A stretch of 51,349 nt of DNA from Syntrophomonadaceae bacterium (GCA_003552365.1 PUKR01000099.1:1-51349); one strand, 5' to 3'; positions 4,215 to 51,349 are shown, numbered from the stretch's first letter. The notes: generated by a model from the sequence alone, not told the origin. Program-made: numbers and translations.

Positions 4215-5426
4215 CTACTTCCAAACCATATCAGCAAGCTCAAGCGATTCCAGGTAATAAGACATAACCTCAACTTCGTCAAGCCCATATTTATCAGAAG
4301 CAATAGCAAAAGCATTTTCCCAGTTTCCTTTTTCATAAAGTAAAACCATATCCAGGATATCTCTAAAGGCACCGGGTTCCCCGCTTAGAGCGTCTTTGAT
4401 TTCCTCTGCCAGGGGCAGCTCTGACAAAACGCTTTCCATCGGTTGATCCAAAAAAGTATCTAGCAGGGAAAACATCCCGGTTAAAAAAAGGTCGGCGCTG
4501 CGATCATGCAGATCGGTTGCCCTGGCCATTGATTCACAGAACTTAGCCCTGGCTACAGCAGTTACCATCAGTTCATCGGGTTTATCATAACCGACATTAC
4601 GCAGGGCAACCAAAGAAGCCCATTTAATCATTTCTTTTTGACCCAGCAGGGCCATGGCCTGGCGAATAGAACGAATCGGGAAGCGGAGCGGAAAAGCGAC
4701 AGAATTTATAAACCGCAATAATTTATAAGATAGGGACGGGTCTTGTTTAATTAAAGTTTCCACCTGGTCAAAATCCATATCCGGTTTATATATTTCCTGC
4801 AGCAAACGGAGGTTTTGTAATTTAGCCCCCGGGACTTCTTTACCGGTTATTACGGTGGGCTCGCAGAAAAAAAAGCCCTGAAAGAAATCATAACCATTTG
4901 CCATGGCATCCCCGTAATCTTTAACATTCTCCACTTTTTCAGCAATCAGCTTCACCTTGCTGTTTTTAAAGTAATTAACAATTTCTTCACGTTCCCGGGC
5001 CTCAGTTTCCTGGTAATCCACTTTAATAAAGTCGGCAATATCCACTAATTTTGTTGTTTCCGAACTGTGCACGTAGTCATCAAGGATAATCATGTACCCT
5101 TTTTTCTTAAGGGCCAAACAAGCTTGACAAGTTTCTTGTTCAAACCCATAATCCCGGGCTATTTCAATTGCGATCAAATCCCTGGGCAAAAGCAACGCTG
5201 TTTCATTCTTAATCAGCTGCTCGCTAAAGTTAATAAATGCCCTTTTTCGCCTGGTTAATTTATCCAGACCAAGATTTAAAAAACTATTAACAATGACCTC
5301 AGAAGTAGCCAGATCTCCGTCCGTGGTAGGATTGTAATTATGAGAGCCGGTTCGGTACAGTAATTCATAGGCATATACCTTTTGCCGTCGATCAAATATT
5401 GGTTGCCTGGCCACAAATACTTCCAA
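4215..5426 (-). CDS. EAL-domain + HDOD-domain protein (c-di-GMP-related signalling)
   Basis: 403-aa ORF, TTG start with SD GAGGAGG. The N-terminus VARQPIFDRRQKVYAYELLYR plus INFS, IKVD, AEKVE and FFQGFFF fit an EAL fold. The C-terminal half (SLSYKLLRFINS...LGQKEMIKWASLVAL) is HDOD-like. Confidence 0.8.
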   Translation of the reverse strand: MEVFVARQPIFDRRQKVYAYELLYRTGSHNYNPTTDGDLATSEVIVNSFLNLGLDKLTRRKRAFINFSEQLIKNETALLLPRDLIAIEIARDYGFEQETCQACLALKKKGYMIILDDYVHSSETTKLVDIADFIKVDYQETEAREREEIVNYFKNSKVKLIAEKVENVKDYGDAMANGYDFFQGFFFCEPTVITGKEVPGAKLQNLRLLQEIYKPDMDFDQVETLIKQDPSLSYKLLRFINSVAFPLRFPIRSIRQAMALLGQKEMIKWASLVALRNVGYDKPDELMVTAVARAKFCESMARATDLHDRSADLFLTGMFSLLDTFLDQPMESVLSELPLAEEIKDALSGEPGAFRDILDMVLLYEKGNWENAFAIASDKYGLDEVEVMSYYLESLELADMVWK

Positions 5427-18000: not shown

Positions 18001-18762
18001 TTACTCCTGTTCGTTTAACATTACCCGTAATCTTTCAATTGCCCGGGCATGCAGTTGAGAAATACGTGCTGCCGATACCTTCATTAATTGCGCCACTTCT
18101 TTCTTGGTCAGCTCTTCATAGTAGAACAGGGAAAGCATCAATTTTTCCCGTTCGGGCAATTTATCGATAGCTTCCGCCAGTTGCCTGACCTGGTCTTTAT
18201 CAGTAAGGATTTCTTCCGGGGTTTGTTCCGGTGAAGCGATAACCCCTTCAAGGCGCAGGCTGTCTTCCCCATCAGGTGAATGAATCACTTTTTCCAAAGA
18301 AACCACCGACATCAGGTTATAGTTCGCCCAAACCTGATCTACGGTTGACGGACTCCAGCCTAAAGTAGATGCGATCTCTTCTCTTTCCGGCTCGCGGTTC
18401 AAGGATTGCCTCAATTTTTCTTCAGCTTCATGGAGTTTACGAAACTGGCTGAAGAAAGAACGTGGTGCCGGGCTGCTCTTACGAATTTCATCAATCATGG
18501 CTCCCTTAATCCGCCAGGTAGCATAAGTTGAAAACTGCACCCCGCGTGAACTTTCATAACGCTCCCAGGCTTCAATCAAGCCGATTATTCCGCTTCCGAC
18601 CAGGTCTTCCTCATCCAGGGAAGGGGGTAAAGCAATGCTGAGCTTTCCGGCCAGCTTCCTGATTAGCGGAAGGTAATTGGTTATAACCTCTTCACTGCTT
18701 CCTTCCAGTGGCTGCTCCTGTTGTTGTTCCTGGTAAACCTTTTTTACATTACGCTCAAGCAT
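18001..18762 (-). CDS. fliA: flagellar RNA polymerase sigma factor FliA/SigD (sigma-28)
   Basis: It has sigma-70 region 2 (LIRKLAGKL...EEDLVGSGIIGLIEAWERY..., FSTYATWRIKGAMID), region 3, and region 4 (LSLFYYEELTKKEVAQLMKVSAARISQLHARAI). The ATG at 18762 is my preferred start. The ORF-track TTG at 18807 lies inside the pilZ gene. Confidence 0.88.
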   Translation of the reverse strand: MLERNVKKVYQEQQQEQPLEGSSEEVITNYLPLIRKLAGKLSIALPPSLDEEDLVGSGIIGLIEAWERYESSRGVQFSTYATWRIKGAMIDEIRKSSPAPRSFFSQFRKLHEAEEKLRQSLNREPEREEIASTLGWSPSTVDQVWANYNLMSVVSLEKVIHSPDGEDSLRLEGVIASPEQTPEEILTDKDQVRQLAEAIDKLPEREKLMLSLFYYEELTKKEVAQLMKVSAARISQLHARAIERLRVMLNEQE

Positions 18763-18781
18763 AGTCCCCCTGGAACCTCCC

Positions 18782-19546
18782 TTACTCTTTATTGCGCATT
18801 GATTCAAACAGATAGTTTATAATGCGCTCCCGAACGTTTTCGTTTATATTGATAAAGCTAACCCCGGCCCGGTATCGTTTCCACCTTCCTATGCTAATGG
18901 TCACAACCCTGACAACCTTTCCTTCCAGGAGAAAAACATGGTTCTCTTCTCCATTAAGCTTGATCTTAATTAAAAGATGATCGTTTCTTTTTAACCGCTC
19001 GGAGACAACCATTCGCAACCCGCCCCCGGACAGGTCCAGGGTAAAAGCAGCTCTTCCCGGCATTATGCTTTCCAATTCCCTGGTGCGTTCCTCCATCCAG
19101 AGTGGGTCTTCCCAAAACCCGGGAGTGCGACACGAACTAAAATATTGAGTGCTGTTTTTTATAGCCGGGTCATCCAGGCACCAATAACGCAATTCGAAGT
19201 GACAGGGAACCCGGATATGACCCCGCCGCTGGTGCCGCTCTACCGTGTAAGGTTTTTTCACCAGGTAATGCTTTTCCACGCTGTTCCGGTTAACTCCGAT
19301 CACTAAAGAATTAAACAGATAAACAGCTTCATCTTTTACCAGGCAAAACTGCCAGCTGCTGTTATGAGGCATGGGTAGTTCTTTACCGCCGGAAACCGGT
19401 TCACATATGGTTATAATCTCCTTACCCGTTTCCCTGATATGGCAGGTATAATATTCTTGATCCCGCTCGTTCAAAACCTGGAGCCGATCACCAACTGTTA
19501 AACTTTTATTCATTTCAGCCGCTTTTCTTCTTCCGAACAGCTTCAT
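18782..19546 (-). CDS. PilZ-domain c-di-GMP-binding protein (YcgR-like flagellar brake candidate)
   Basis: 254-aa ORF. It has a YcgR-N-like N-terminal half and a PilZ signature, RRGHIR (RxxxR) plus DLSGGG (DxSxxG). The start ATG overlaps the flhG stop (ATGA). Confidence 0.82.
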   Translation of the reverse strand: MKLFGRRKAAEMNKSLTVGDRLQVLNERDQEYYTCHIRETGKEIITICEPVSGGKELPMPHNSSWQFCLVKDEAVYLFNSLVIGVNRNSVEKHYLVKKPYTVERHQRRGHIRVPCHFELRYWCLDDPAIKNSTQYFSSCRTPGFWEDPLWMEERTRELESIMPGRAAFTLDLSGGGLRMVVSERLKRNDHLLIKIKLNGEENHVFLLEGKVVRVVTISIGRWKRYRAGVSFININENVRERIINYLFESMRNKE

Positions 19547-40311: not shown

Positions 40312-40716
40312 TTAACGCCTCCCTTCATTGATTACAAAACGCCAGTTATCAAAGCGAGTATTTAACTTTTGTGTATATGAATTGTAGCGAAGCTGGTTGC
40401 TGACCATATTGAGCATTTCCCGCTCCAGATCAACGTTGTTGCCGTCAATCCGGCGGATAGTAGAGGTGTCTTTTTTGATTTCAGGTTCGATGTCCCGATC
40501 GGGCATTTGGGGGAAATGCCTCTCATCGGTCCGGGCAAGCGGGGAATCAATTCTTTCCCGGGCTTCCTGCAGCTGTTTTTCAAAGGAAACATCGCTGCGC
40601 TGAAAACCCGGCGTGTTTAAGTTGGCAAGGTTATTGGCTGTCACCTGCTGGCGCAGGGTCGATGCATCCATCCCCTTAATTATGCCGGATGTGACTTTAT
40701 CCCGGAAAATTGTCAT
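40312..40716 (-). CDS. flgB: flagellar basal-body rod protein FlgB
   Basis: MTIFRDKV...QQVTANNLANLNTPGFQRSDVSF...DGNNVDLEREMLNMVSNQLRYN. I set the start at ATG 40714-40716, after GGGGGTG. The ORF track extends to 40761, through the leader terminator. Confidence 0.95.
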   Translation of the reverse strand: MTIFRDKVTSGIIKGMDASTLRQQVTANNLANLNTPGFQRSDVSFEKQLQEARERIDSPLARTDERHFPQMPDRDIEPEIKKDTSTIRRIDGNNVDLEREMLNMVSNQLRYNSYTQKLNTRFDNWRFVINEGRR

Positions 40717-40831: not shown

Positions 40832-40913
40832 GACTGGCAGCCTGGCAATCCGGCTTAACTGCGGATCCACGGCTTTGCGCCCCCATATCACTATGGGTTA
40901 GCCTTTATCAGTC
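40832..40913 (-). promoter_or_regulatory. c-di-GMP-I (GEMM-I-like) riboswitch aptamer in the flgB operon leader
   Basis: The 82-nt minus-strand sequence is GACUGAUAAAGGCUAACCCAUAGUGAUAUGGGGGCGCAAAGCCGUGGAUCCGCAGUUAAGCCGGAUUGCCAGGCUGCCAGUC. It has a closing helix GACU/AGUC + GGC/GCC, a GNRA-capped hairpin CCCAUA-GUGA-UAUGGG, the GCGCAAAGCC core and a second hairpin GGAUCCG/CGGAUU. The layout matches the V. cholerae Vc2 aptamer as I recall it (..GGGCAAACC-hairpin(GAAA)-GGGACGCAAAGCC..). Confidence 0.75.
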
Positions 40914-41688: not shown

Positions 41689-42120
41689 TTAGTTTTCCGG
41701 CCCTGCTACAGTGTCTAACGGCACTCTCATGTCCTCACAGCGGTGAGGCACTATCAACTGTTTGCCTCTTTTTTGGACCACATTGATCAGGATCGGTGCG
41801 GCAAGGTTGGTGTAAAGCCTGGCATCATCTACAGTAACGGTCGTAAAAATTATGAGATCCCGCTCTTTTTTGAGCATAAGATCACGCCGATCATCTCGCT
41901 GCAAATCTACACTGTAGCGAGGGAAAAATGGCAACGGATCAACCAGGATCATCCCGATCGAGGGATCATCAGCTGCTATCAGCATGGCAAAAAGCCTGTT
42001 TCCGGGAATTGGTTCAATTAAAAAGCGGCGGTACAATTCCAGGCCCGGGATACCACGGGGGAATATAAATTCTACAAGCTTCCTTTGACTGGTATCTACG
42101 GCTGATTGTTCAATTGTCAT
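41689..42120 (-). CDS. fliW: flagellar assembly factor FliW
   Basis: 143-aa ORF with SD AGGAGG. IEFIFPRGIPGLE...FLIEPIPGNRLFAMLIAADDP...LVDPLPFFPRYSVD...LIIFTTVTV is typical of FliW. Confidence 0.9.
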   Translation of the reverse strand: MTIEQSAVDTSQRKLVEFIFPRGIPGLELYRRFLIEPIPGNRLFAMLIAADDPSIGMILVDPLPFFPRYSVDLQRDDRRDLMLKKERDLIIFTTVTVDDARLYTNLAAPILINVVQKRGKQLIVPHRCEDMRVPLDTVAGPEN

Positions 42121-42148: not shown

Positions 42149-44101
42149 TTATCGCATGTAATCCACCAGGGTTGGCTGCAGCATTTTCTGGGCTGTAGAG
42201 AGAGCAGCGTGATAGGCATTCTCCTGCATTGTAAATTCTGTGATTACATAAGCCAGGTCGATATCTTCGATTTCCGAGCGAATTTCACGCAGTGATATGT
42301 TTTCGCTAAAGAGAGTGTCATACATTGCTTCCACCCGGTTCGATCGCGCTCCAACCTGGGCTAATTGTTCCAGGAAATGATCCACCGATTTGTCCATTTT
42401 ATCCAGGGCTTCGCCACCAAGCGCTTCACGATCATCGTTCATCAAGGCATTATATACTTCAAAAACTGCTTCAAAAACTTCTTCATTTTCGCCAAATACT
42501 TTTTTCCCGCTTAAATTCATAATCACCTGCTGGTGGGGGCTGATATCCTGGCTCCGCTCCTTGTCATCACCGTAATATACCGGAAATCCTTCACTATCGT
42601 AGGAAAAGGTTAGGGCTGCCTCTTCACCGGTATCTGCAAACTGATTATAAGATAGTGAAATGCTGCCATCATGAACTTCACCCTTGTTCGGAGAACGATC
42701 AAAAGTATCCAGGCTTTGATAATGCAGTTCGATATCCGAATCATTCAGGGCCTCTTCGGCAAAAACGTAGGTGATGCCAGATCCCCCTCCCCGGTGTTCA
42801 CCGCTGAGGTGTGCCTGATCGTAAGTAACTCCTTCTTCCCCGGAAGGTTTGAAATTCAATATTGCTTTGTCGCCCATCTTTAGATCGCCGGCATCAAGCG
42901 CATCTAATTGATCCAGGCCTTCAATGTTGAATTCGATATCTCCCAGGTTAACAGTTTGGCTTTCCTCACCCTCTTCACCATAGGTAAGGGTAAAACTGCC
43001 CTCGTGGTTTTCATAGGTTCCATCCAGGGCATACTGATGAGAGTTATAATGGTAGGTAACTTCACCGGTACTTTCATCAACACCGGTTACCTCCAGCTGT
43101 ACGGAAGCGCTGAAACCGGAAGCGACAGTTACGGAGTCACCATCTTCGGCGCCAGCGAGCTGATCCATATCGATCCTAAAATCATCTCCTAAAACTGATT
43201 CATTTCCGCCCTCAGGCTCAAGGACGCCATTTTCATCAACCGTTCCTTCTTCACCGCTTACACTTTCAACATAGTTCCATTGTTCCGTTTCCCCATCATA
43301 ATTAAGCTTTAAGGCAAAGCCTTGATCGGGCTCATTTTCTATAAAATTATTGTTATCGTAATCGATAGTCAGATCGGAACCTTCCTGCGGCTCTGCTTTA
43401 ACCATAACTCCACTGTTGATTTCTCCCGCCGTCTCCTCAAAATTATCATTGCCGATTATGTTCATAGCGCTGCCCTGTAAATACTGCCCGCTAAAGCTGA
43501 CAGCAGCTTCTTGATCAGCCTCCAATTCTTCCCTTACTTGATCGAGCCGGTAATCACCATTTTGCATGCCCTCTGCAATTAAATCATAAATTTCCGCTTC
43601 ATTTTCTTCCCCGTAACGGATCCCGCTATCCTCATTAACTTCAACATGATACATATTTTCGCGAACATAAGGAGAATTAAAAGTTTGATGTCCGCCAAAT
43701 ATATAAAGCCCGTTTGATTCTGTATTGGCAACTCCGATCATATGTTCAGTAAATTCAAGCACCTCGGGAGCTATTGCCCGACGATCTTCTGCAGTAAGGC
43801 TGTCATTAGCTCCGTAAATACATAACTCACGGATTCTTTGTAAAACATCAAGCCCGTTTTGCAATCCCCCTTCAGTGTTATCAAGCCAGCTTTTAGACTG
43901 ATTCATGTTCAACCGGAACTGCTCATTACGGTCTATCGAAGCACTATAACTCATAACCCGGCCCACACCTACCGGTTCCTGGGACGGGCGGGTAAACTTT
44001 TTCCCTGTTGACAATTGATCTCCATAGCGTTCAAGCCGTTGAAGATTGTTTTGAAGATTATGGTTTATGTTATGGGATACCATCTTATGGGTAATACGCA
44101 T
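42149..44101 (-). CDS. flgL: flagellar hook-associated protein 3 FlgL (flagellin-fold termini, about 400-aa acidic insert)
   Basis: 650-aa ORF with SD AGGAGG. It has an N-terminal flagellin-like helix (MRITHKMVSHNINHNLQNNLQRLERYGDQLSTGKKFTRPSQEP) and a C-terminal one (GARSNRVEAMYDTLFSENISLREIRSEIEDIDLAYVITEFTMQENAYHAALS). It sits directly after flgK. Confidence 0.88.
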   Translation of the reverse strand: MRITHKMVSHNINHNLQNNLQRLERYGDQLSTGKKFTRPSQEPVGVGRVMSYSASIDRNEQFRLNMNQSKSWLDNTEGGLQNGLDVLQRIRELCIYGANDSLTAEDRRAIAPEVLEFTEHMIGVANTESNGLYIFGGHQTFNSPYVRENMYHVEVNEDSGIRYGEENEAEIYDLIAEGMQNGDYRLDQVREELEADQEAAVSFSGQYLQGSAMNIIGNDNFEETAGEINSGVMVKAEPQEGSDLTIDYDNNNFIENEPDQGFALKLNYDGETEQWNYVESVSGEEGTVDENGVLEPEGGNESVLGDDFRIDMDQLAGAEDGDSVTVASGFSASVQLEVTGVDESTGEVTYHYNSHQYALDGTYENHEGSFTLTYGEEGEESQTVNLGDIEFNIEGLDQLDALDAGDLKMGDKAILNFKPSGEEGVTYDQAHLSGEHRGGGSGITYVFAEEALNDSDIELHYQSLDTFDRSPNKGEVHDGSISLSYNQFADTGEEAALTFSYDSEGFPVYYGDDKERSQDISPHQQVIMNLSGKKVFGENEEVFEAVFEVYNALMNDDREALGGEALDKMDKSVDHFLEQLAQVGARSNRVEAMYDTLFSENISLREIRSEIEDIDLAYVITEFTMQENAYHAALSTAQKMLQPTLVDYMR

Positions 44102-44112
44102 GCGCTAACCTC

Positions 44113-45510
44113 CTAACGCCCCAGTTCGGTAAAGAGAACCGTGAGCATTTCATCTACATGGTTCAAATACCGGGCTGCAGCCTGCCAGGCGTGCTGATAC
44201 TGGGTCATATTCAACACTTCTTCATCCATGTTAACCCCGGCTACCGAGTTGTGCATTTCCTCAAATTCCTTTTTTGTGCGGCTAAATGCTTCGACCATTC
44301 GCTCACTTTCCTGGGCTTCCACGCCCATCGAGGTAACCACACCCCGGTAATATTCGACCAGGGAAACTCCGTCAAGGCGTCCTTCTTCCCTTTGGTCTCT
44401 CAGCCTTGCTATTTCCAGGGCATTCTCGCCGTTGCCGGGTTCACCCGGCTCGGTTGAAGCTGCTATATTGGAAGAATCTTCAATAACTTGTTCAGAAACC
44501 CGGAAATTCATGGCCGCAGAAGATCCTTCCTCGACAGGCTCAAAAAAATTGATCCCGCTTTCCTCATGATCCAAACCGTATCCGTCACTGTGCAGTTCAT
44601 TTACTTCCTCCACAAGGGTTCCCACAACTGTGTCCAATTCATCCTGGATATGGGGAATATCTTTATTTACAGCATCAGACAATGCGATAATCCGGCCCGA
44701 GGTTAAGTTTAACGGACGCCCGCGTTGGCTTACTACTTGCAAGCCTTCACCGGAATCATCAGTCTTCACGTTCATATGTAAAGCCTGATCTTCCTGGACC
44801 AGAAGCTGGCCCCCGGCAAAAATATCAACTGCTCCGCTTCCCTTACGGTGCACCTGGATATCAACCAACTCGGATAACTCTTTTATGGCCAGGTCTAGTT
44901 TGTCCAATAATTCGTTTGAGTCTTGCTGCAAGGCATCGACAAAGCGCAGTTTATCATTTAATTCACTTATTTCATCAGCTATCCGGTTTGCCTCATTAAC
45001 CCGCATCTCCAGTTCTTCCTGTTTATCCAACCTCATATCTTCCAGGCGCATATAAACATCTTCCACCGAATGAGTTAAGCTGACCGCTTTTTCCCGCAAC
45101 CCGGAACGCACCGCAGCTTCTTCCGGGGAAGAACTCAATTCCTGCCAGGCATCGAAAAAATCATTAAGGTATTTATTAATGCCATACTGATCCGGTTCCA
45201 TCATTATCGATTCGGCAGTCATATAGGTTTCCCGGCGCATTTCCCAGTAAGCTTCGTGAGAACCGGTATTTATTTTCTGGGAAAAATAAAATTCACTGTG
45301 CATTCTTTCAACTTTTGATACCCTGACCCCATTACCGGGAGCCATGTCGGTATCGGCTACTATCGGGGAAGCCACGGATTCAAGGTTGGCTCTTTGCCGG
45401 CTGTAACCCGGGGTGTTGGCATTGGCCACATTCTGGCCGCTGACTTCCATTCCTTTATGTTGAGCTCTCAATGCTTTGCGACCGATTTCAAATGAACCAA
45501 ATATGGTCAT
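44113..45510 (-). CDS. flgK: flagellar hook-associated protein 1 FlgK
   Basis: 465-aa ORF. It has the N-terminus FEIGRKALRAQHKGMEVSGQNVANANTPGYSRQR and the C-terminus GVNMDEEVLNMTQYQHAWQAAARYL. Confidence 0.94.
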   Translation of the reverse strand: MTIFGSFEIGRKALRAQHKGMEVSGQNVANANTPGYSRQRANLESVASPIVADTDMAPGNGVRVSKVERMHSEFYFSQKINTGSHEAYWEMRRETYMTAESIMMEPDQYGINKYLNDFFDAWQELSSSPEEAAVRSGLREKAVSLTHSVEDVYMRLEDMRLDKQEELEMRVNEANRIADEISELNDKLRFVDALQQDSNELLDKLDLAIKELSELVDIQVHRKGSGAVDIFAGGQLLVQEDQALHMNVKTDDSGEGLQVVSQRGRPLNLTSGRIIALSDAVNKDIPHIQDELDTVVGTLVEEVNELHSDGYGLDHEESGINFFEPVEEGSSAAMNFRVSEQVIEDSSNIAASTEPGEPGNGENALEIARLRDQREEGRLDGVSLVEYYRGVVTSMGVEAQESERMVEAFSRTKKEFEEMHNSVAGVNMDEEVLNMTQYQHAWQAAARYLNHVDEMLTVLFTELGR

Positions 45511-45536: not shown

Positions 45537-46022
45537 TTAACAGCTTTGGTCAAGAGTTTTTGGCGACCCCGGTTCTGTTCTCTGCAGCCGACCGTTTTGA
45601 TCGTAATAAGCTAGCCTGCTGGAAAGGACAAGTTCCTGCAGCTCTTTTGAAAATCTGAGACGTTCTTCCAAAAGCGCACGATTTACTTCATGGATAGCCC
45701 GAATTTCTTGAAGGGTCCTCCTGATTTCAGCCAGTTTTTCCAGTAGATCAGGCTGACTGCTTTTTTCAACATTGGCTTTAATATATTCCTCAATCCCGGT
45801 ATTGGCATAAACAAGGTTTTTACGCCTGTCTTCCAGGTCCGCAGTTTTTTGCTTTAAATCTGAGCGGGTATTTTCATCAGAGAGCAGTGCTTTATAATCA
45901 CCGCTCATCAGCTGTTTGCGCATTCTTTCTTCCATATATAGTATATTTTTGAATAATTTGGTTCCTTCACTTAAAACAATATCCAGTTCAATTACTTTTT
46001 CCCGGTAAGCGGGCACTGCCAT
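45537..46022 (-). CDS. flgN: flagellar export chaperone FlgN-like protein
   Basis: Helical protein of about 161 aa between flgM and flgK, with a FlgN-like pattern (LLEERLRFSKELQELV...YYDQNG). I prefer the ATG at 46022, after AAGGGAAG. The ORF-track ATG at 46040 has no SD. Confidence 0.7.
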   Translation of the reverse strand: MAVPAYREKVIELDIVLSEGTKLFKNILYMEERMRKQLMSGDYKALLSDENTRSDLKQKTADLEDRRKNLVYANTGIEEYIKANVEKSSQPDLLEKLAEIRRTLQEIRAIHEVNRALLEERLRFSKELQELVLSSRLAYYDQNGRLQRTEPGSPKTLDQSC

Positions 46023-46056
46023 AATTAATCTTCCCTTCATGGTTGGGTAATGTAAG

Positions 46057-46344
46057 TTAAATCTTGCCCATAAACTTTAGCATGGCCTCCGCCAACTTTT
46101 CACTGTCAACGTGGTACTCACCATTCTCAATTTTTTCAGCGAGGCTTTTCAACTGGGCCGCTTTTTCGGGGCGGGATTCTTCTTCCAGCCGATCCATCTC
46201 CTGCTGTAAACCGGTGAGCAGCTGCGAAAGTTCTTTGCGGTCTTCACCTTTAGACTTGGCCTTTTGTGAACCGCCTGAAGCTTTTCCCGGTTCCTCGGTC
46301 AGAATTCGGTTGATCAGGTGCAGGTAATTTGAACTTATTCTCAT
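46057..46344 (-). CDS. flgM: anti-sigma-28 factor FlgM
   Basis: 95-aa ORF. It has the C-terminal FlgM signature LKSLAEKIENGEYHVDSEKLAEAMLKF and sits directly upstream of flgN-flgK-flgL. Confidence 0.85.
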   Translation of the reverse strand: MRISSNYLHLINRILTEEPGKASGGSQKAKSKGEDRKELSQLLTGLQQEMDRLEEESRPEKAAQLKSLAEKIENGEYHVDSEKLAEAMLKFMGKI

Positions 46345-46426: not shown

Positions 46427-46453
46427 ATAATCGTCAGCTGGCAAATATATTTA
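46427..46453 (-). promoter_or_regulatory. candidate sigma-28 (FliA/SigD)-type promoter upstream of flgM
   Basis: On the minus strand, TAAA (46450-46453), 15 nt, then ACGATTA. The SigD consensus as I recall it is TAAA-N16-CCGATAT. The core CGAT is kept but the match is imperfect. Confidence 0.3.
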
Positions 46454-46478
46454 AGAGGTAAATGGTGAAAGAAAGAAT

Positions 46479-48290
46479 TTATTTTTCCCAGGGGAGGATT
46501 TTAACTTCAAAATCTTCCTGGTCGAGGACAAGGCGAACACTGTTCAGCGTCCGGTCAGAGCGGTACTCTGTATTGCCAAACTTTATCCGTACATTTTCAT
46601 AGATGCTGCCCAAATGTACCTTCGACTTATATGGAACGTAAATGCGCCCCTGTTCAGAACTGACACGAGGCGATCCGGCTTCACCGATATATACATCACC
46701 GCCGGCTTCAATAGTTCCGCCACGGAACAACCGGGAAATCCTTACTTCGCCATTGCTTTTTAACTGGGAATTATAAACTCCGGGCCCGTTTATTATAATG
46801 TTCCCGGTACAGGTAAGGGCACTGTTCTGAACATAAGGCACTGTGATATCAGCTTGCCCGGTTTTTACAGCATTACTTTCATCTTTCAACTGCAGCAGCT
46901 TATCATAGACCTCCTGCAAAACAGGCCTGCCTAAGGCCTGGCTGTACTGGTAATCAGTAAAATGGGGGGCTATTTCACTGATTAAACGGGTTAAGTTTTG
47001 TGGAAGAGACCGTCCGGCAGCCTTCACAGACTTTATCAAGCTATTGGCATAGTCGGGCAGATCGGCAAATTTGCTCTGCAATAGGGAACGGACAACCGCT
47101 GCTTCCATTTTCTCCGTGTGTTTACCTTTTTGTTCCAGGGCTTTGGCAATTTCCTCTGAAGCTGCGAGAGCATTACCTACGCTCTCAGTCATATTTTCCA
47201 AAACATCATAAATTTCACCGACAACAAGATCAACCCAGCCGGCCTGGACCCTGCACTTAATGCAATTGCCTTTAAACAAAACACTTCCTCCGGCCAATAC
47301 TTCCGCGCCGGATGCATTGCCTCCCACCTCGACATCACCATCAGCGGAAACTTTCATCCCTTCAGAAATACCGCCCTGTACTTTTAAGTGACCACGAAAA
47401 TCTATATTTCCGCTTTTTATGTTCACATCGCCTTTATGGGTATAAACATCGTCAACCCTAAAGACATGGGTCCGCCCTTTTTTATAAGTAGGTGCCCCGG
47501 TACAGTTAGCAAGGACTTTAGTCTGATCTGGATTGAGAGTGGTTCCACTTTCACATTTTATCTCGGCCGGAAAAACCGGATCTGGTTGTATCTCTTCCCC
47601 GGTAACTCTCTTGCCTGATTCTCCCGGCACTGGCGGATGAATTACGGCTACGGGGTCACCTTTTTTAACTTCTTCTATCTCGAAACGCTTCCTGAGATCA
47701 ACCCGGCCCTCTTTTTCATCGTATGCAACAGCTTTCATTGCCCCCTCAAAAAGCGGCTCCACCCATCCGTTGCTCCCCTGTTTAACCGGTTTCCCCATAG
47801 CAACCTGGTGCCAGGCATTCTCTTCTTCAATTATTTTCGGCAAAACAGCCTGATTCAGTCCATAAACAACTCCCTGCGCTTTAATTTCTTCCTGGAGTTG
47901 CTCGAGGCTTAAATTTTTTATGGTTTCTTCCCTGAGCTTACCTTCTACCGTTAGTTCATCAGTATAGGGATGATCATCTATTATATAATACTTTCGCACG
48001 CCCGGCTTGTAGCGAGCTTCCGCCCTCATGCCGTCTGCACTGATCTTGACTTCAACCTGGTCAGGTTCAGTTTCTTCCCTGGAAGCAACCTCCACCTTAT
48101 CTCCGGGACATACTTCCGTTTTACCGGATATTACCCGTCCATTTACCTTTACTTCAACACCTTCGCCCGGATTAATAAATGCTCCAGTTCCTCCCTCGTT
48201 AGGAACATCGGTTACTTTAACCTGTCCGTTTTCCAGGGCAAGGAGGATATTTTTTGAAGTGTTTTTGTTGTTGCCGTCCTGCTGTCTCAT
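46479..48290 (-). CDS. FapA-family (DUF342) flagellar assembly-associated protein
   Basis: It has an N-terminal beta-rich region (VKVTDVPNEGGTGAFINPGEGVEVKVNGRVISGKTEVCPGDKVEV). It also has a beta-helix-like repeat region (GDVNIKSGNIDFRGHLKVQGGISEGMKVSADGDVEVGGNASGAEVLAGGSVLFKGNCIKCRVQAG) and a second such block near the C-terminus, as in DUF342/FapA proteins. I prefer the ATG at 48290, downstream of AAGGAG. Confidence 0.78.
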   Translation of the reverse strand: MRQQDGNNKNTSKNILLALENGQVKVTDVPNEGGTGAFINPGEGVEVKVNGRVISGKTEVCPGDKVEVASREETEPDQVEVKISADGMRAEARYKPGVRKYYIIDDHPYTDELTVEGKLREETIKNLSLEQLQEEIKAQGVVYGLNQAVLPKIIEEENAWHQVAMGKPVKQGSNGWVEPLFEGAMKAVAYDEKEGRVDLRKRFEIEEVKKGDPVAVIHPPVPGESGKRVTGEEIQPDPVFPAEIKCESGTTLNPDQTKVLANCTGAPTYKKGRTHVFRVDDVYTHKGDVNIKSGNIDFRGHLKVQGGISEGMKVSADGDVEVGGNASGAEVLAGGSVLFKGNCIKCRVQAGWVDLVVGEIYDVLENMTESVGNALAASEEIAKALEQKGKHTEKMEAAVVRSLLQSKFADLPDYANSLIKSVKAAGRSLPQNLTRLISEIAPHFTDYQYSQALGRPVLQEVYDKLLQLKDESNAVKTGQADITVPYVQNSALTCTGNIIINGPGVYNSQLKSNGEVRISRLFRGGTIEAGGDVYIGEAGSPRVSSEQGRIYVPYKSKVHLGSIYENVRIKFGNTEYRSDRTLNSVRLVLDQEDFEVKILPWEK

Positions 48291-48382
48291 CCAACAAACA
48301 ACTCCTTCTAACATTTATTCAATTCCAGTTAACTTAGAAGCTGAATTTAAAAATTCAGTTACAGCAAGTTAAAGGCTGTAGT

Positions 48383-48643
48383 TCAATGGCGCGGGTTTTT
48401 CTGCACCATTTTAACAGCGTCAAGCACTATACCTAAAATATCCAGGTCCTGCTGCATTGCTAAAAGTTCGGCCCGGCCATAAGTTTCTCCTTTGCTTGAA
48501 ACTACATAGCGCGGTGGAATTTTATTCAGCGCTATAGCGCTGATATCAAACCGGCACTGCTGGCAGGTGCAGAATTCATGGTATTTCCTTACGTCATCAA
48601 TGGTATTGGAAACGACCTGTTCCATGAGGTTTTTAAGTTCCAT
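48383..48643 (-). CDS. ComFB-family (late competence development protein ComFB-like) small Cys-containing protein
   Basis: MELKNLMEQVVSNTIDDV...FCTCQQCRFDISAIALNKIPPRYVV...LDAVKMV is the typical ComFB layout. I set the start at ATG 48641-48643, 8 nt after GAGGAGAG. Confidence 0.78.
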   Translation of the reverse strand: MELKNLMEQVVSNTIDDVRKYHEFCTCQQCRFDISAIALNKIPPRYVVSSKGETYGRAELLAMQQDLDILGIVLDAVKMVQKNPRH

Positions 48644-48677
48644 AACGATATCTCTCCTCAATTGATGAGATCATACA

Positions 48678-49799
48678 CTAAGATAAGTCTCTGTTTATAA
48701 CGTGCTCCGGTAATTCATGGTCATGGTACACCCGGTCGACAGCTACCTGTAAATCCTCCAAAAGATCTATTTCGTAGCTTTCAAGGGGGGCAAAATCCTC
48801 CCTGGCACAAATAATTCTAACCCTGGGCCGGTAGGGATAGCCATGAGTGTTATGAGTAACTACCCCAATTAGTTCGTTGGTTAGCCCGATTATAGTGCCT
48901 ACCGGGTAAGCGGATATGTGATGATAAAAAGTTTGCATCACATTTAAGTCATATCCTGTAGATTCTTCTTCCATAATTTCCAGGGCCTTGTGAGGCATAA
49001 ACCCGGGACGGTATGGGCGATCTGAAACCAGCGCATCATATACATCCGCTACCGCGCATACCCTTGGGTAAAGTTCAATATCATCCCCATTTAACCCCTG
49101 CGGGTAACCAGCACCATTCATCCTTTCATGGTGCTTGTAAATGATTGAAAGGGTGGGTCCGTTAAACAGCTGCCGCCCTTTAATCAGGTTCAAACCATAA
49201 GCAGGGTGCTTTTCTATTTCCAACCTTTCATCCTCAAACAAACGGTCCGGTTTGTTGAGTATATTTAGAGGAACCACAACCTTGCCCAAATCGTGCAGGA
49301 ATGCACCAAGCCCAATATCTTTAAGGGCTGAACGGGACATTCCCAGGGAGATCCCGGTCATGATGGATAAAACAGCAACATTAACAGAATGCCCAAAAGT
49401 ATAGTCGTCAGTATACCTGATATCGGATAAATTAACGGTGAGATTCTTATTGCTTAATAACTGGCCGACAATATCATCAAGGAGGTTAGAAAGTTCTTTT
49501 TTCACAGAAATAAAATGGGTATATTTCTTGTTCTCTTGATTTTTAATACCGGTGAGAGTATCTTTAACCAGGCTGACAGCTTTTTCCCTGGTTTCATCAA
49601 GGATAACATCTTCTACGTAAATATCCGGGATCAGGTTATCGTGAACGTAAACCCCGCGGATATTTAATTTCTTAAGCCGCTGAATGTATTCCATTTCCAG
49701 CTTAACCCCGGCATTAAGCAGGACCGCACCCCCGCTGCCGGTTATTTTTTTGGCTACTCTCATGCCCGGGCGCAAAGCCCAAACCGGGACTAATCTCAT
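48678..49799 (-). CDS. HD-GYP domain c-di-GMP phosphodiesterase
   Basis: It has HSVNV...GAFLHDLGK (HD) and HHERMNGAGYPQGL (GYP), plus an N-terminal non-enzymatic domain. I set the start at ATG 49797-49799, 6 nt after AGGTG. Confidence 0.88.
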   Translation of the reverse strand: MRLVPVWALRPGMRVAKKITGSGGAVLLNAGVKLEMEYIQRLKKLNIRGVYVHDNLIPDIYVEDVILDETREKAVSLVKDTLTGIKNQENKKYTHFISVKKELSNLLDDIVGQLLSNKNLTVNLSDIRYTDDYTFGHSVNVAVLSIMTGISLGMSRSALKDIGLGAFLHDLGKVVVPLNILNKPDRLFEDERLEIEKHPAYGLNLIKGRQLFNGPTLSIIYKHHERMNGAGYPQGLNGDDIELYPRVCAVADVYDALVSDRPYRPGFMPHKALEIMEEESTGYDLNVMQTFYHHISAYPVGTIIGLTNELIGVVTHNTHGYPYRPRVRIICAREDFAPLESYEIDLLEDLQVAVDRVYHDHELPEHVINRDLS

Positions 49800-50009
49800 T
49801 GCTCGCACCTTTTTTTAAAGATTTAGCTGTTATTTTTATCGGCACAACAACAAACCGTTTAAGTGAAGTAACTTTTAAAATATTTTCACACACATTAAGT
49901 TTATAACATATTTTACTAACCGGCAAATATATCGAATAGACCTTTTCCAAACAAAATATTTATAGTAAAATCGCGATATTTATCGATAATGGCAGCTTAA
50001 GCTAATGCC

Positions 50010-50044
50010 AAAAAAATCCCTTTACCCTTAACGGGAAAAGAGAT
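50010..50044 (-). terminator. intrinsic terminator following the second c-di-GMP aptamer
   Basis: The minus strand reads AUCUCUUUUCCC-GUUAA-GGGUAAAGGGAU followed by U7, with 10 of 12 stem positions paired. Confidence 0.65.
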
Positions 50045-50157
50045 CGACAAAGATAAGTTACTAACCATGAGCCGGCAGCCAGGCTATCATAGTCTGTCTT
50101 AACCTTAGACCCTTAGCTTTGCGCCCCTGCCTTTCGACAGGTTTGCCCTTGTCGATC
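50042..50157 (-). promoter_or_regulatory. c-di-GMP-I (GEMM-I-like) riboswitch aptamer upstream of the HD-GYP/ComFB/FapA genes
   Basis: The minus strand reads GAUCGACAAGGGCAAACCUGUCGAAAGGCAGGGGCGCAAAGCUAAGGGUCUAAGGUUAAGACAGACUAUGAUAGCCUGGCUGCC...UUGUCGAUC. It has GGGCAAACC, a GAAA-capped hairpin CCUGUC/GGCAGG and GGCGCAAAGC, close to Vc2 as I recall it. A 9-bp outer helix pairs 50149-50157 with 50042-50050. Confidence 0.78.
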
Positions 50158-50182: not shown

Positions 50183-50211
50183 AGTATAATCAAGTATACT
50201 TGTGATGTCAA
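50183..50211 (-). promoter_or_regulatory. sigma-A-type promoter driving the second riboswitch
   Basis: On the minus strand, TTGACA (50206-50211), 17 nt, then TATACT (50183-50188). It starts 18 nt after the MORN gene stop. Confidence 0.7.
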
Positions 50212-50228
50212 TTGTTAACGGTATACCA

Positions 50229-51349
50229 TCAGCCAGGGCCTTGCCGGGTGATATTTCGTTCCATTTGTTCCCCGGTAGAACTATTATTATCTTCAATAAC
50301 CCTATAAGGTCCAAATCCAAACAGCCAAATACCCTTTTTAAACGAATGTTCTCCATGGATCAGCCGGCCGACCCCGTGGCGACGATCAAAAAACCAGCCT
50401 CCATTATATTTATCTCCGACTGCGGGCAGACAGGTTCCATAACCATGCCGCCATCCGTTCCACCAGCGCCCCCTGTAAATACTTCCACCGGGCCATTCAA
50501 GAATTCCCCAGCCATGATACCTGCCGCCGGCAAATTCACCTTCGTATTTACCGCCTTTGGCAAAACAGCAACTTCCACGGTTGTGCATTTTACCTCTTCG
50601 CCAATTACCCTTATATTCTGATCCATCAGCCTGCTTTAAAAATCCTTTACCATGGTAATCATTGTTGAAGAAATGACCCTCATAATAATCTCCACCTGCG
50701 GAACGATAAATCCCCCAGCCGTTTAACTTATCGGCATACCATTCTCCTTCATACTCAGAACCGTCCGGCCATACTTGCCTTCCCTGTCCCTGCCTGCGGC
50801 TGCTTTCAAATTCCCCCTTGTAAACAACACCGTTCCGGAAATTAACTTCACCATAACCATTCGGTCGCCCATCTTTTATTGCACCGTTATAACGAGAACC
50901 GTCCGCAAAGAAGTAGACCCCGGAATCATCGGAAGAACCTTTAACAAATATTCCTACATAGCGGGAACGATCGGGAAAAACCAGCTCACCCTCCCCGTGG
51001 GGCATGTTGTTCTTAGTTTCACCAATATATTTTGTGCCCCCGGAGTAATAAACCTTACCCCAACCGCTGTCACTACCGTGTTCGAACTTACCGGCAAAAT
51101 AGCTGCCGTCAGAAAAATAAACAAACCCCTTACCGTAAGGCAGGCCATTAAACAGTTTTCCCCGGTATTCTGATTGATCGGGAAAGAAAAATCTCCCTTT
51201 ATCAACAAAATTTCCATTTTTAAAAAAGCCTTTATATTGAGAGCCGTCTGTGAAAGTATAGACTCCCTTGCCGTGCATCCGGTTTTTTTTCCATTCACCT
51301 TCATAAGAACGTCCATCAGGCCAGGTTTGCTTTCCATAACCATGTCTTA
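50229..51349 (-). CDS. MORN-repeat protein (5' end outside window)
   Basis: More than 14 tandem YxGxWxxGxxxGxG-type MORN repeats (YKGEFESSRRQGQG, YEGEWYADKLNGWG, YKGNWRRGKMHNRG...). The frame stays open upstream of the ORF-track Met to position 51349 (..HGYGKQTWPDGRSYEGEWKKNRMHGKG..). Confidence 0.85.
   Translation of the reverse strand, partial: RHGYGKQTWPDGRSYEGEWKKNRMHGKGVYTFTDGSQYKGFFKNGNFVDKGRFFFPDQSEYRGKLFNGLPYGKGFVYFSDGSYFAGKFEHGSDSGWGKVYYSGGTKYIGETKNNMPHGEGELVFPDRSRYVGIFVKGSSDDSGVYFFADGSRYNGAIKDGRPNGYGEVNFRNGVVYKGEFESSRRQGQGRQVWPDGSEYEGEWYADKLNGWGIYRSAGGDYYEGHFFNNDYHGKGFLKQADGSEYKGNWRRGKMHNRGSCCFAKGGKYEGEFAGGRYHGWGILEWPGGSIYRGRWWNGWRHGYGTCLPAVGDKYNGGWFFDRRHGVGRLIHGEHSFKKGIWLFGFGPYRVIEDNNSSTGEQMERNITRQGPG

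Follow-up and report, generated by a model that had tools for sequence, protein, structure and literature searches.

An HD-GYP, ComFB and FapA/DUF342 gene trio before flgM: a candidate lineage-specific c-di-GMP signalling add-on in a flagellar superoperon

Why are an HD-GYP protein, a small ComFB-family protein and a FapA/DUF342 protein encoded side by side directly before flgM, the gene of the anti-sigma-28 factor? We addressed this question in a 51,349-nt stretch of DNA from a Syntrophomonadaceae bacterium (GCA_003552365.1 PUKR01000099.1:1-51349; hereafter the window, meaning the whole stretch analysed), which makes up a whole contig and is a flagellar-chemotaxis superoperon. The three genes lie on the minus strand between a riboswitch of the cyclic di-GMP (c-di-GMP)-I class and flgM-flgN-flgK-flgL-fliW, with gaps of 34 nt (HD-GYP/ComFB), 92 nt (ComFB/FapA) and 134 nt (FapA/flgM), all on one strand (Table 1). 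A first-pass annotation had described this trio, its strand, its coordinates and its spacing of 34 and about 90 nt, and all were present as described. With a probability of roughly 0.6, we read the trio as a lineage-specific c-di-GMP signalling add-on placed before a conserved late-flagellar unit, DUF342/FapA-flgM-flgN-flgK-flgL-fliW.

The HD-GYP protein matched Pfam HD_5 with 97 bits and comprises an N-terminal Bd1817-like region, the catalytic HD-GYP domain and a C-terminal beta-rich domain. Its gene begins with an ATG preceded by the ribosome-binding site (RBS) AAAGGTG, and its N-terminus, MRLVPVWALRPGM, is common to orthologs. Alignment with PDB sequences and 34 orthologs showed that H137, H169-D170, K173, H198, H223-H224-E225, G231-Y232-P233, D252 and D255 are invariant in the orthologs. 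All seven His/Asp metal ligands (H137, H169-D170, H198, H223-H224, D252) and the GYP motif are kept, which bears out the earlier assignment to the HD-GYP family. The PDB sequence matches were 5z7c (5.6e-29) and 4mcw (3.7e-25), together with 4r8z, 9rbz and 3tm8, and an AlphaFold2 model (predicted local distance difference test, pLDDT, 86) had its best Foldseek matches in Bd1817, PmGH, c-di-GMP-bound DvhD and PA4781 (E 1e-8 to 1e-11). The third-metal Glu of the trinuclear enzyme PmGH corresponds to an invariant Tyr133 here, so the binuclear subtype is expected, and we predict an active phosphodiesterase of that type. The c-di-GMP riboswitches and the PilZ protein of the same locus favour c-di-GMP as its substrate. 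The C-terminal all-beta domain (residues ~300-358; window 48720-48900) was confidently modelled and gave no Pfam match.

The ComFB protein covered profile positions 1-83 of 83 of PF10719 with 81.7 bits against a cut-off of 25. Its homologs are mostly 86 aa as well, which supports the ATG start. PDB sequence matches were 4wai (B. subtilis ComFB, 7e-11) and 8hja (c-di-GMP-bound cyanobacterial CdgR, 1.7e-6). For the AlphaFold2 model (pLDDT 78.6), Foldseek returned a probability of at least 0.99 for chains of 4wai and 8hja only, the next being at most 0.15, with moderate template modelling (TM) scores of 0.5-0.6. That ComFB is a widespread receptor of c-di-GMP and cyclic di-AMP (c-di-AMP) emerged only in 2023-2025: c-di-GMP is bound by the proteins of Bacillus, Thermoanaerobacter, Vibrio, Treponema and cyanobacteria, and some of these proteins also bind c-di-AMP; in its c-di-GMP-bound form, B. 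subtilis ComFB inhibits flagellar function (PMC12448109, PMC12265714). A 2025 study in Proceedings of the National Academy of Sciences (PNAS) names D33, N40 and R/K41, hydrophobic residues at 36, 37 and 47, and Y55 as c-di-GMP contacts (B. subtilis numbering), N4, E7, D33, N40 and Y46 as dimer residues, and C25, C27 and C30 (with C88 in B. subtilis) as zinc ligands. The window protein has every contact residue (D33, A36, I37, N40, K41, V47, Y55), its N5, E8, D33, N40 and Y46 match the published dimer set, and its zinc triad C25, C27 and C30 is invariant; the fourth Cys is missing, as reported for other Bacillota. These functional residues are mostly invariant among 21 close homologs. All 43 homologs of a diverse set reaching down to 36% identity keep the C-terminal PRH (Pro84-Arg85-His86; window 48383-48391), His86 in particular, and His86 may be a candidate fourth zinc ligand in place of B. 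subtilis Cys88.

Judged by sequence, the protein is a predicted ComFB-family receptor and not a "late competence protein": it scored 53.3 bits against the Bacillus equivalog model NCBIfam NF052654, below the cut-off of 120, and neither comFA nor comFC flanks it in the window or in related loci. It is probably a zinc-containing dimeric receptor of c-di-GMP. The key proposal of the first-pass annotation, that ComFB is a cyclic-dinucleotide receptor, has been published for the family (PMC12448109, PMC12265714), and all residues named there are kept in the window protein; the proposal was already in print in 2025, and the new part is the gene context. The position of comFB upstream of flgM in B. 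subtilis was likewise confirmed (PMC12265714). The 2025 PNAS study remarks that comFB has flagellar genes nearby in both B. subtilis and T. denticola; its text makes no mention of FapA, DUF342 or flgM and refers to HD-GYP in general background only. We found no published description of the HD-GYP-ComFB-DUF342-flgM arrangement.

The third protein carries FapA_N (117.3 bits, cut-off 27) and the FapA beta-solenoid (96 bits, cut-off 31), and its start was confirmed by ortholog consensus. Orthologs down to 39% identity were always immediately upstream of flgM. DUF342/FapA genes are known companions of the sigma-28 sub-module in flagellar superoperons (PMC11607428), and Vibrio FapA is described as required for polar flagellum formation (Park et al. 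2016 and 2019, cited in PMC6877527).

A FapA-anchored scan covered one genome per species and 15 loci (FapA orthologs of 39-73% identity), annotated with the window proteins. The results showed the order HD-GYP-ComFB-FapA-FlgM-FlgN-FlgK-FlgL in 10 of the 15 loci (L011-13, L016-20, L022, L023). FapA-FlgM stood alone in L025 (39% identity), with neither HD-GYP nor ComFB, and L024 ends at a contig edge. FapA-flgM is the constant core, and HD-GYP and ComFB are separable accessories upstream of it. The upstream flanks vary by clade, with MORN and TatC in one and aromatic amino-acid genes in L022, indicating that the block is conserved in its own right and is not a chance juxtaposition. On one further contig (L091, 604-2046), a single 480-aa open reading frame (ORF; P0094) joins HD-GYP (56% identity to the window protein) and ComFB (55%) and is followed by FapA-FlgM-FlgN. 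The module was distributed over one soda-lake Syntrophomonadaceae-like clade and a few Bacillota metagenome-assembled genomes (MAGs).

A wider, ComFB-anchored scan annotated 80 loci on metagenome contigs; it used a 12-sequence alignment, the diverse 43-sequence one being too degenerate for this purpose. The module was repeated in the seven closest loci (at least 64% identity), six with FapA and one on a contig that ends after ComFB, and HD-GYP was missing in two of these seven. Eight of the 80 loci (31-40% identity; L145, L148, L149, L153, L155, L158, L124, L168) adjoin chemotaxis genes, mostly in full che operons with the order CheA-ComFB-CheR-CheY-CheD-CheB, the short contigs L124 and L168 showing one che neighbour; in two more (L163, L164), ComFB precedes fliE-fliF-fliG. 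The rest were mostly without these motility genes, and the few checked had housekeeping neighbours and, in one case, a prepilin peptidase. ComFB is recurrently and independently tied to motility, and its neighbourhood with flgM is clade-specific. The first-pass impression that this neighbourhood is conserved is not supported as a general rule, since only the seven closest of the 80 loci show the module; the survey that it had called for, of HD-GYP and DUF342 partners around ComFB, found them among the closest relatives, while most homologs are not beside DUF342 or flgM.

In a second group of loci from other Bacillota MAGs (L027, L028, L029, L031, L032; also L009, L034, L037, L039), an HD-GYP gene lies directly upstream of a DUF342 gene. 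The HD-GYP proteins have 225-270 aa (567 aa in L027), the DUF342 proteins are 30-35% identical to the window FapA, and the DUF342 N-terminus in L028 and L032 is Jag_N-like by eye only. Flagellar genes were not detected near these loci. In Desulfoscipio and Desulfallas, HD-GYP lies 2.6 kb upstream, and the intervening genes are STAS- and PP2C-like by eye. These loci suggest a wider HD-GYP-DUF342 association beyond flagellar loci.

The promoter-like motifs may tie the trio to the late flagellar regulon. A motif TTAA-N15-GCCGATAA lies 37 nt before the HD-GYP start codon, between the riboswitch terminator and the gene; the same sigma-28-type motif was present in L001, L011, L013 and L018, and several relatives have a sigma-70-like TTGAC box further upstream of HD-GYP. 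The motif before flgM, TTAA-N15-GACGATTA, aligned in 17 of 17 intergenic regions, including those of the distant L022, L024 and L025 (FapA 39-48% identical), and a pattern search over 16 loci hit it in 14. A strict sigma-28 pattern, TAAA-N13-16-CCGATA, was rejected: it was not kept in relatives, and alignment gave TTAA-N15-16-GNCGATWA instead. Because a sigma-28-type promoter is placed downstream of the riboswitch terminator, much expression may bypass the riboswitch. No minus-strand terminators were predicted in the gaps between HD-GYP, ComFB, FapA and flgM; since flgM has its own conserved sigma-28-type promoter, a single operon is not established.

The ComFB-FapA spacer contains an AT-rich perfect hairpin, CTGAATTT-TT-AAATTCAG (48341-48358, minus strand). 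No conserved element was found in this spacer, and the hairpin occurs in the window alone.

The riboswitch is less constant than the genes. The trio-side aptamer matched RF03167 (clan CL00126) over its full length with 72.7 bits (gathering score 59; E = 2.2e-15). The stretch from the MORN stop (50229) to the aptamer (50156) contains the strongest promoter-like site of the region scanned, agreeing with the consensus at 11 of 12 positions; this predicted sigma-70-type site would start the riboswitch leader. The aptamer reads GGGC and CGCAAAGC at the sites that we take to be the equivalents of G20 and A47. RF03167 is the c-di-GMP-I-GGC model, and an altered-ligand variant was considered on that ground and rejected: the label does not imply another ligand, because both aptamers of the window carry the canonical A at the presumed A47 (CGCAAAGC versus consensus CGCGAAGC). 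Downstream, CTTTGTCGATC (50052-50042) is complementary over 11 nt to the aptamer 5' strand GATCGACAAGGG (50157-50146) and overlaps the base of the terminator hairpin, which folds with -15.0 kcal/mol and is followed by T7; L011 has the same layout. Unconstrained and constrained folding gave the terminator core with or without the 5' strand paired to its downstream complement. The core forms in both modelled states; by analogy with the flgB-leader riboswitch, an OFF reading is weakly favoured, in which the full terminator would form only while the aptamer retains its 5' strand. The riboswitch lies 262 nt upstream of HD-GYP, with the terminator-like hairpin and the sigma-28-type promoter in between. 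Rfam detected a riboswitch upstream of HD-GYP in one of 10 related loci (L011, the closest relative) and none in L001, L013, L014, L015, L018, L019, L021, L022 and L023, and the MORN-HD-GYP gap in other relatives is just 115-140 nt. These two facts mark the riboswitch as a recent, lineage-specific layer outside the conserved unit.

A second c-di-GMP-I riboswitch (40832-40912, minus strand) lies in the flgB leader with its own sigma-70-like promoter (40971-40942), and the 5' arm of its terminator hairpin (~40775-40737) could pair almost completely with the 3' strand of the aptamer. It appears to be a classic OFF design with an evident antiterminator. It was also found in L011, L013, L015 and L021, and it too scores best against RF03167. 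Because the listed flgB TTG start (40761) lies inside the hairpin, translation probably begins instead at 40715, where an ATG follows GGGGGTG.

The picture that we favour can be put as a sequence of steps. A sigma-28 (FliA)-type promoter would drive at least part of the expression of HD-GYP, ComFB and FapA. Once sigma-28 is active, the phosphodiesterase would be made and c-di-GMP would be low at the late flagellar stage; neither ComFB nor the PilZ brake, whose gene adjoins fliA, would then have ligand bound, and new flagella would turn. If c-di-GMP rose, it would bind ComFB, and motility would be inhibited as it is in B. subtilis. This logic would be that of the FliA-controlled PdeH(YhjH)/YcgR pair of E. 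coli, rebuilt with HD-GYP and ComFB. An extra sigma-70-type promoter with riboswitch and terminator, found only in the window and its closest relative, may add c-di-GMP-dependent read-through into the unit. We base this reading on the Pfam, PDB and structure-model matches, the kept residues, the published function of ComFB proteins, the gene order, the fusion and the sigma-28-type motifs; on the further presence in the window of fliA, a YcgR-like PilZ protein, an EAL-HDOD protein and the second riboswitch before flgB; and on the precedent of FliA-dependent phosphodiesterases (yhjH, bifA) and of FliA-controlled YcgR (PMC5300878).

Several observations weigh against a signalling add-on of this kind. 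ComFB-FapA-FlgM occurred without HD-GYP in three of the 15 FapA-anchored loci (L014, L015, L021), and a protein-anchored look-up gave HD-GYP-FapA-FlgM without ComFB in L092; because each adjoins FapA-flgM without the other, HD-GYP and ComFB are not obligate partners. The HD-GYP::ComFB fusion comes from one 4.9-kb Logan contig (SRR27457922) and retains the ComFB RBS-like AGGAG and ATG inside the ORF; it is suggestive only, being either real or a stop codon lost to sequencing error. The sigma-28-type motif before HD-GYP was recognisable in only about five of 11 orthologous loci. The closest PDB sequence match of the HD-GYP protein is V-cGAP3 (5z7c), which is specific for 3'3'-cyclic GMP-AMP (3'3'-cGAMP) and has the YTxGHS motif in common with it, so the specificity cannot be read from sequence, and the Tyr in place of the third-metal Glu of PmGH likewise makes substrate and product uncertain. 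The coupling of HD-GYP and ComFB proposed in the first-pass annotation stands in so far as the pairing is conserved and is fused in one contig, and falls short in that each gene also adjoins FapA-flgM alone; that the phosphodiesterase shapes the ligand pool of ComFB is plausible, with the same restriction.

A different target for ComFB would change the outcome of the pathway. Instead of acting on motor rotation, c-di-GMP-bound ComFB might act on the adjacent FapA or on the FlgM/sigma-28 checkpoint, and so on assembly, placement or late expression; we consider this unlikely, with a small chance of being right. In the FapA-anchored survey, every ComFB of the clade is directly upstream of FapA, even without HD-GYP and with gaps down to 5 nt, and the same adjacency was seen in the ComFB-anchored scan wherever the contig extends beyond ComFB. 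FapA-flgM is moreover the invariant core, DUF342 genes are tied to sigma-28 sub-modules (PMC11607428), Vibrio FapA is needed for the polar flagellum (cited in PMC6877527), and the motility target of ComFB is unknown (PMC12265714). However, the case consists of adjacency, FapA-flgM occurs without ComFB, and most ComFB homologs are not beside DUF342 or flgM. The ComFB-FapA spacer is variable and unconserved, in some relatives as short as about 5 nt and in others well over 100 nt long, and what B. subtilis ComFB inhibits is flagellar function, not flagellar production (PMC12265714). A joint reading, in which c-di-GMP-bound ComFB binds DUF342 or gates FlgM/sigma-28 and HD-GYP is a physically associated local sink, as the fusion hints, seems to us decidedly unlikely.

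The pairing of HD-GYP and ComFB could also reflect a physical complex, with ComFB as the c-di-GMP-sensing subunit in a feedback or trigger-enzyme arrangement and the flagellar site as co-regulation only. Adjacency is kept: the two genes are about 24-36 nt apart or their ORFs overlap, and the in-frame fusion P0094 stands in the same FapA-flgM context. Yet that fusion was seen once, on a short contig, with the ComFB RBS and ATG kept, either gene adjoins FapA-flgM without the other, and HD-GYP orthologs of at most 51% identity to the window protein stand alone in unrelated contexts with no ComFB. These facts make a dedicated complex very unlikely. There is a slimmer chance still that the adjacency is historical, a housekeeping phosphodiesterase and ComFB having been inserted by chance in one lineage with no common function. 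The narrow distribution, the ready loss of both accessory genes and the miscellaneous neighbours of other ComFB homologs would fit such a history. On the other side, the order holds to 48% FapA identity with wholly different upstream flanks, ComFB recurs independently in che and fli operons, HD-GYP lies directly upstream of DUF342 in a second, non-flagellar context, and motility control by ComFB has been shown experimentally elsewhere. That the messenger is 3'3'-cGAMP or c-di-AMP in place of c-di-GMP, as the V-cGAP3 match with its shared YTxGHS motif and the c-di-AMP binding of several ComFB proteins might suggest, is highly improbable, because both riboswitches of the window score as c-di-GMP-I and keep the presumed G20-equivalent G (A in cGAMP-sensing variants), the same locus encodes YcgR-like PilZ and EAL-HDOD proteins, the nearest HD-GYP structure matches are c-di-GMP enzymes, and we know of no HD-GYP enzyme that hydrolyses c-di-AMP.

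The locus carries at least five c-di-GMP-related elements. Beyond the features of Table 1, fliA lies at 18001-18807 (minus strand), a YcgR-like PilZ protein (PilZNR and PilZ; 18782-19546, minus strand) is encoded directly upstream of it with overlapping ORFs, and the EAL-HDOD protein is encoded at 4215-5426 (minus strand). A ComFB identical to the window protein was found on contig SL_5KL_010_SEDDRAFT_10000033; going by the contig names only, we take SL and SED to mean soda-lake sediment. The MORN gene is upstream in L001, L011, L013-15, L017-21 and L023 and not in L022, L091 or L092; it is kept in the closest clade only and lies outside the core. Its ORF has 349 aa here, near the contig end, and homologs on related contigs have about 510-530 aa (L094: 527); the gene may be modelled incompletely at the edge of the window, or its sequence may be different.

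Table 1. Features of the HD-GYP-ComFB-FapA-flgM region, in window coordinates
Feature	Position	Strand	Evidence
MORN-repeat protein gene (upstream neighbour)	50229-51278	minus	Pfam MORN 7.2e-33
Sigma-70-type promoter-like site	50183-50211	minus	TTGACA-17-TATACT
c-di-GMP-I (GEMM-I) aptamer	50070-50156	minus	RF03167 match
Riboswitch expression platform	50010-50052	minus	terminator hairpin 50045-50017 and T7 50016-50010
Sigma-28/SigD-type promoter-like site before HD-GYP	49836-49862	minus	TTAA-N15-GCCGATAA
HD-GYP gene, 373 aa	48678-49799	minus	Pfam HD_5 1.3e-27
ComFB-family gene, 86 aa	48383-48643	minus	PF10719 4e-23
FapA/DUF342 gene, 603 aa	46479-48290	minus	FapA_N 6.5e-34, FapA 3.9e-27
Sigma-28/SigD-type promoter-like site before flgM	46428-46454	minus	TTAA-N15-GACGATTA
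flgM, anti-sigma-28 factor	46057-46344	minus	Pfam FlgM 37.5 bits, cut-off 25
flgN	45537-46040	minus	Pfam FlgN
flgK	44113-45510	minus	Pfam FlgK
flgL	42149-44101	minus	Pfam FlgL
fliW-like gene	41689-42120	minus	via orthologs with PF02623 in the same position

The locus offers a testable candidate pathway together with its natural variants, having both genes, either, a fusion or neither. DUF342/FapA is common in flagellar loci, yet a mechanism is available only in Vibrio. If the link from ComFB to FapA or FlgM is true, the motility target of ComFB would be found, and DUF342 would gain its first biochemical role, as a c-di-GMP output. If the genes are only co-regulated, the locus would be a Gram-positive counterpart of FliA-PdeH-YcgR built from other families, with nothing fundamentally new. 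The modular insertion of HD-GYP and ComFB before DUF342-flgM is a useful lead to the ComFB target and to DUF342 function.

Five known systems resemble parts of the locus. The Cd1 c-di-GMP-I riboswitch of Clostridioides difficile lies upstream of flgB, and the flgB-leader riboswitch of the window is like it in combining a GEMM-I aptamer and a terminator in a flagellar operon leader. Unlike Cd1, the trio-side riboswitch precedes a predicted phosphodiesterase/receptor unit, has a terminator core in both states and has further promoters downstream. B. subtilis ComFB (encoded in comFA-comFB-comFC; 4WAI) shares with the window protein the Pfam family, the fold, the zinc Cys triad, the dimer and contact residues and a gene position upstream of flgM. 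It differs in that the window lacks comFA and comFC, its protein falls below the equivalog cut-off and Cys88 is replaced by His86, and the B. subtilis locus has no HD-GYP or DUF342 genes, whereas the window ComFB is paired with both. Cyanobacterial CdgR/ComFB (Synechocystis Slr1970, 8HJA) has a homologous c-di-GMP-binding domain with contact residues in common; in contrast to the window protein, it has an extra N-terminal helical subdomain, acts in cell size, type IV pili and competence, and is encoded beside hfq (PMC12448109).

Vibrio vulnificus FapA has the same FapA_N and FapA beta-solenoid and is tied to flagellar genes (PMC6877527, PMC11607428), whereas the window FapA is only about 30% identical over about 200 residues to gammaproteobacterial DUF342 proteins. 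The Vibrio partners HubP and EIIAGlc and the role in polar flagellation are not known to apply in the window, where fapA is beside flgM and not fliA. The closest parallel in logic would be PdeH(YhjH)/YcgR of E. coli and Salmonella, a phosphodiesterase and a c-di-GMP-dependent motility inhibitor co-expressed with late flagellar genes under sigma-28-type promoters, the former keeping the latter free of ligand in motile cells (PMC5300878), to which the predicted mechanism of the window would correspond. The window differs from it in having HD-GYP and not EAL, ComFB instead of or besides PilZ, and both genes contiguous with DUF342-flgM.

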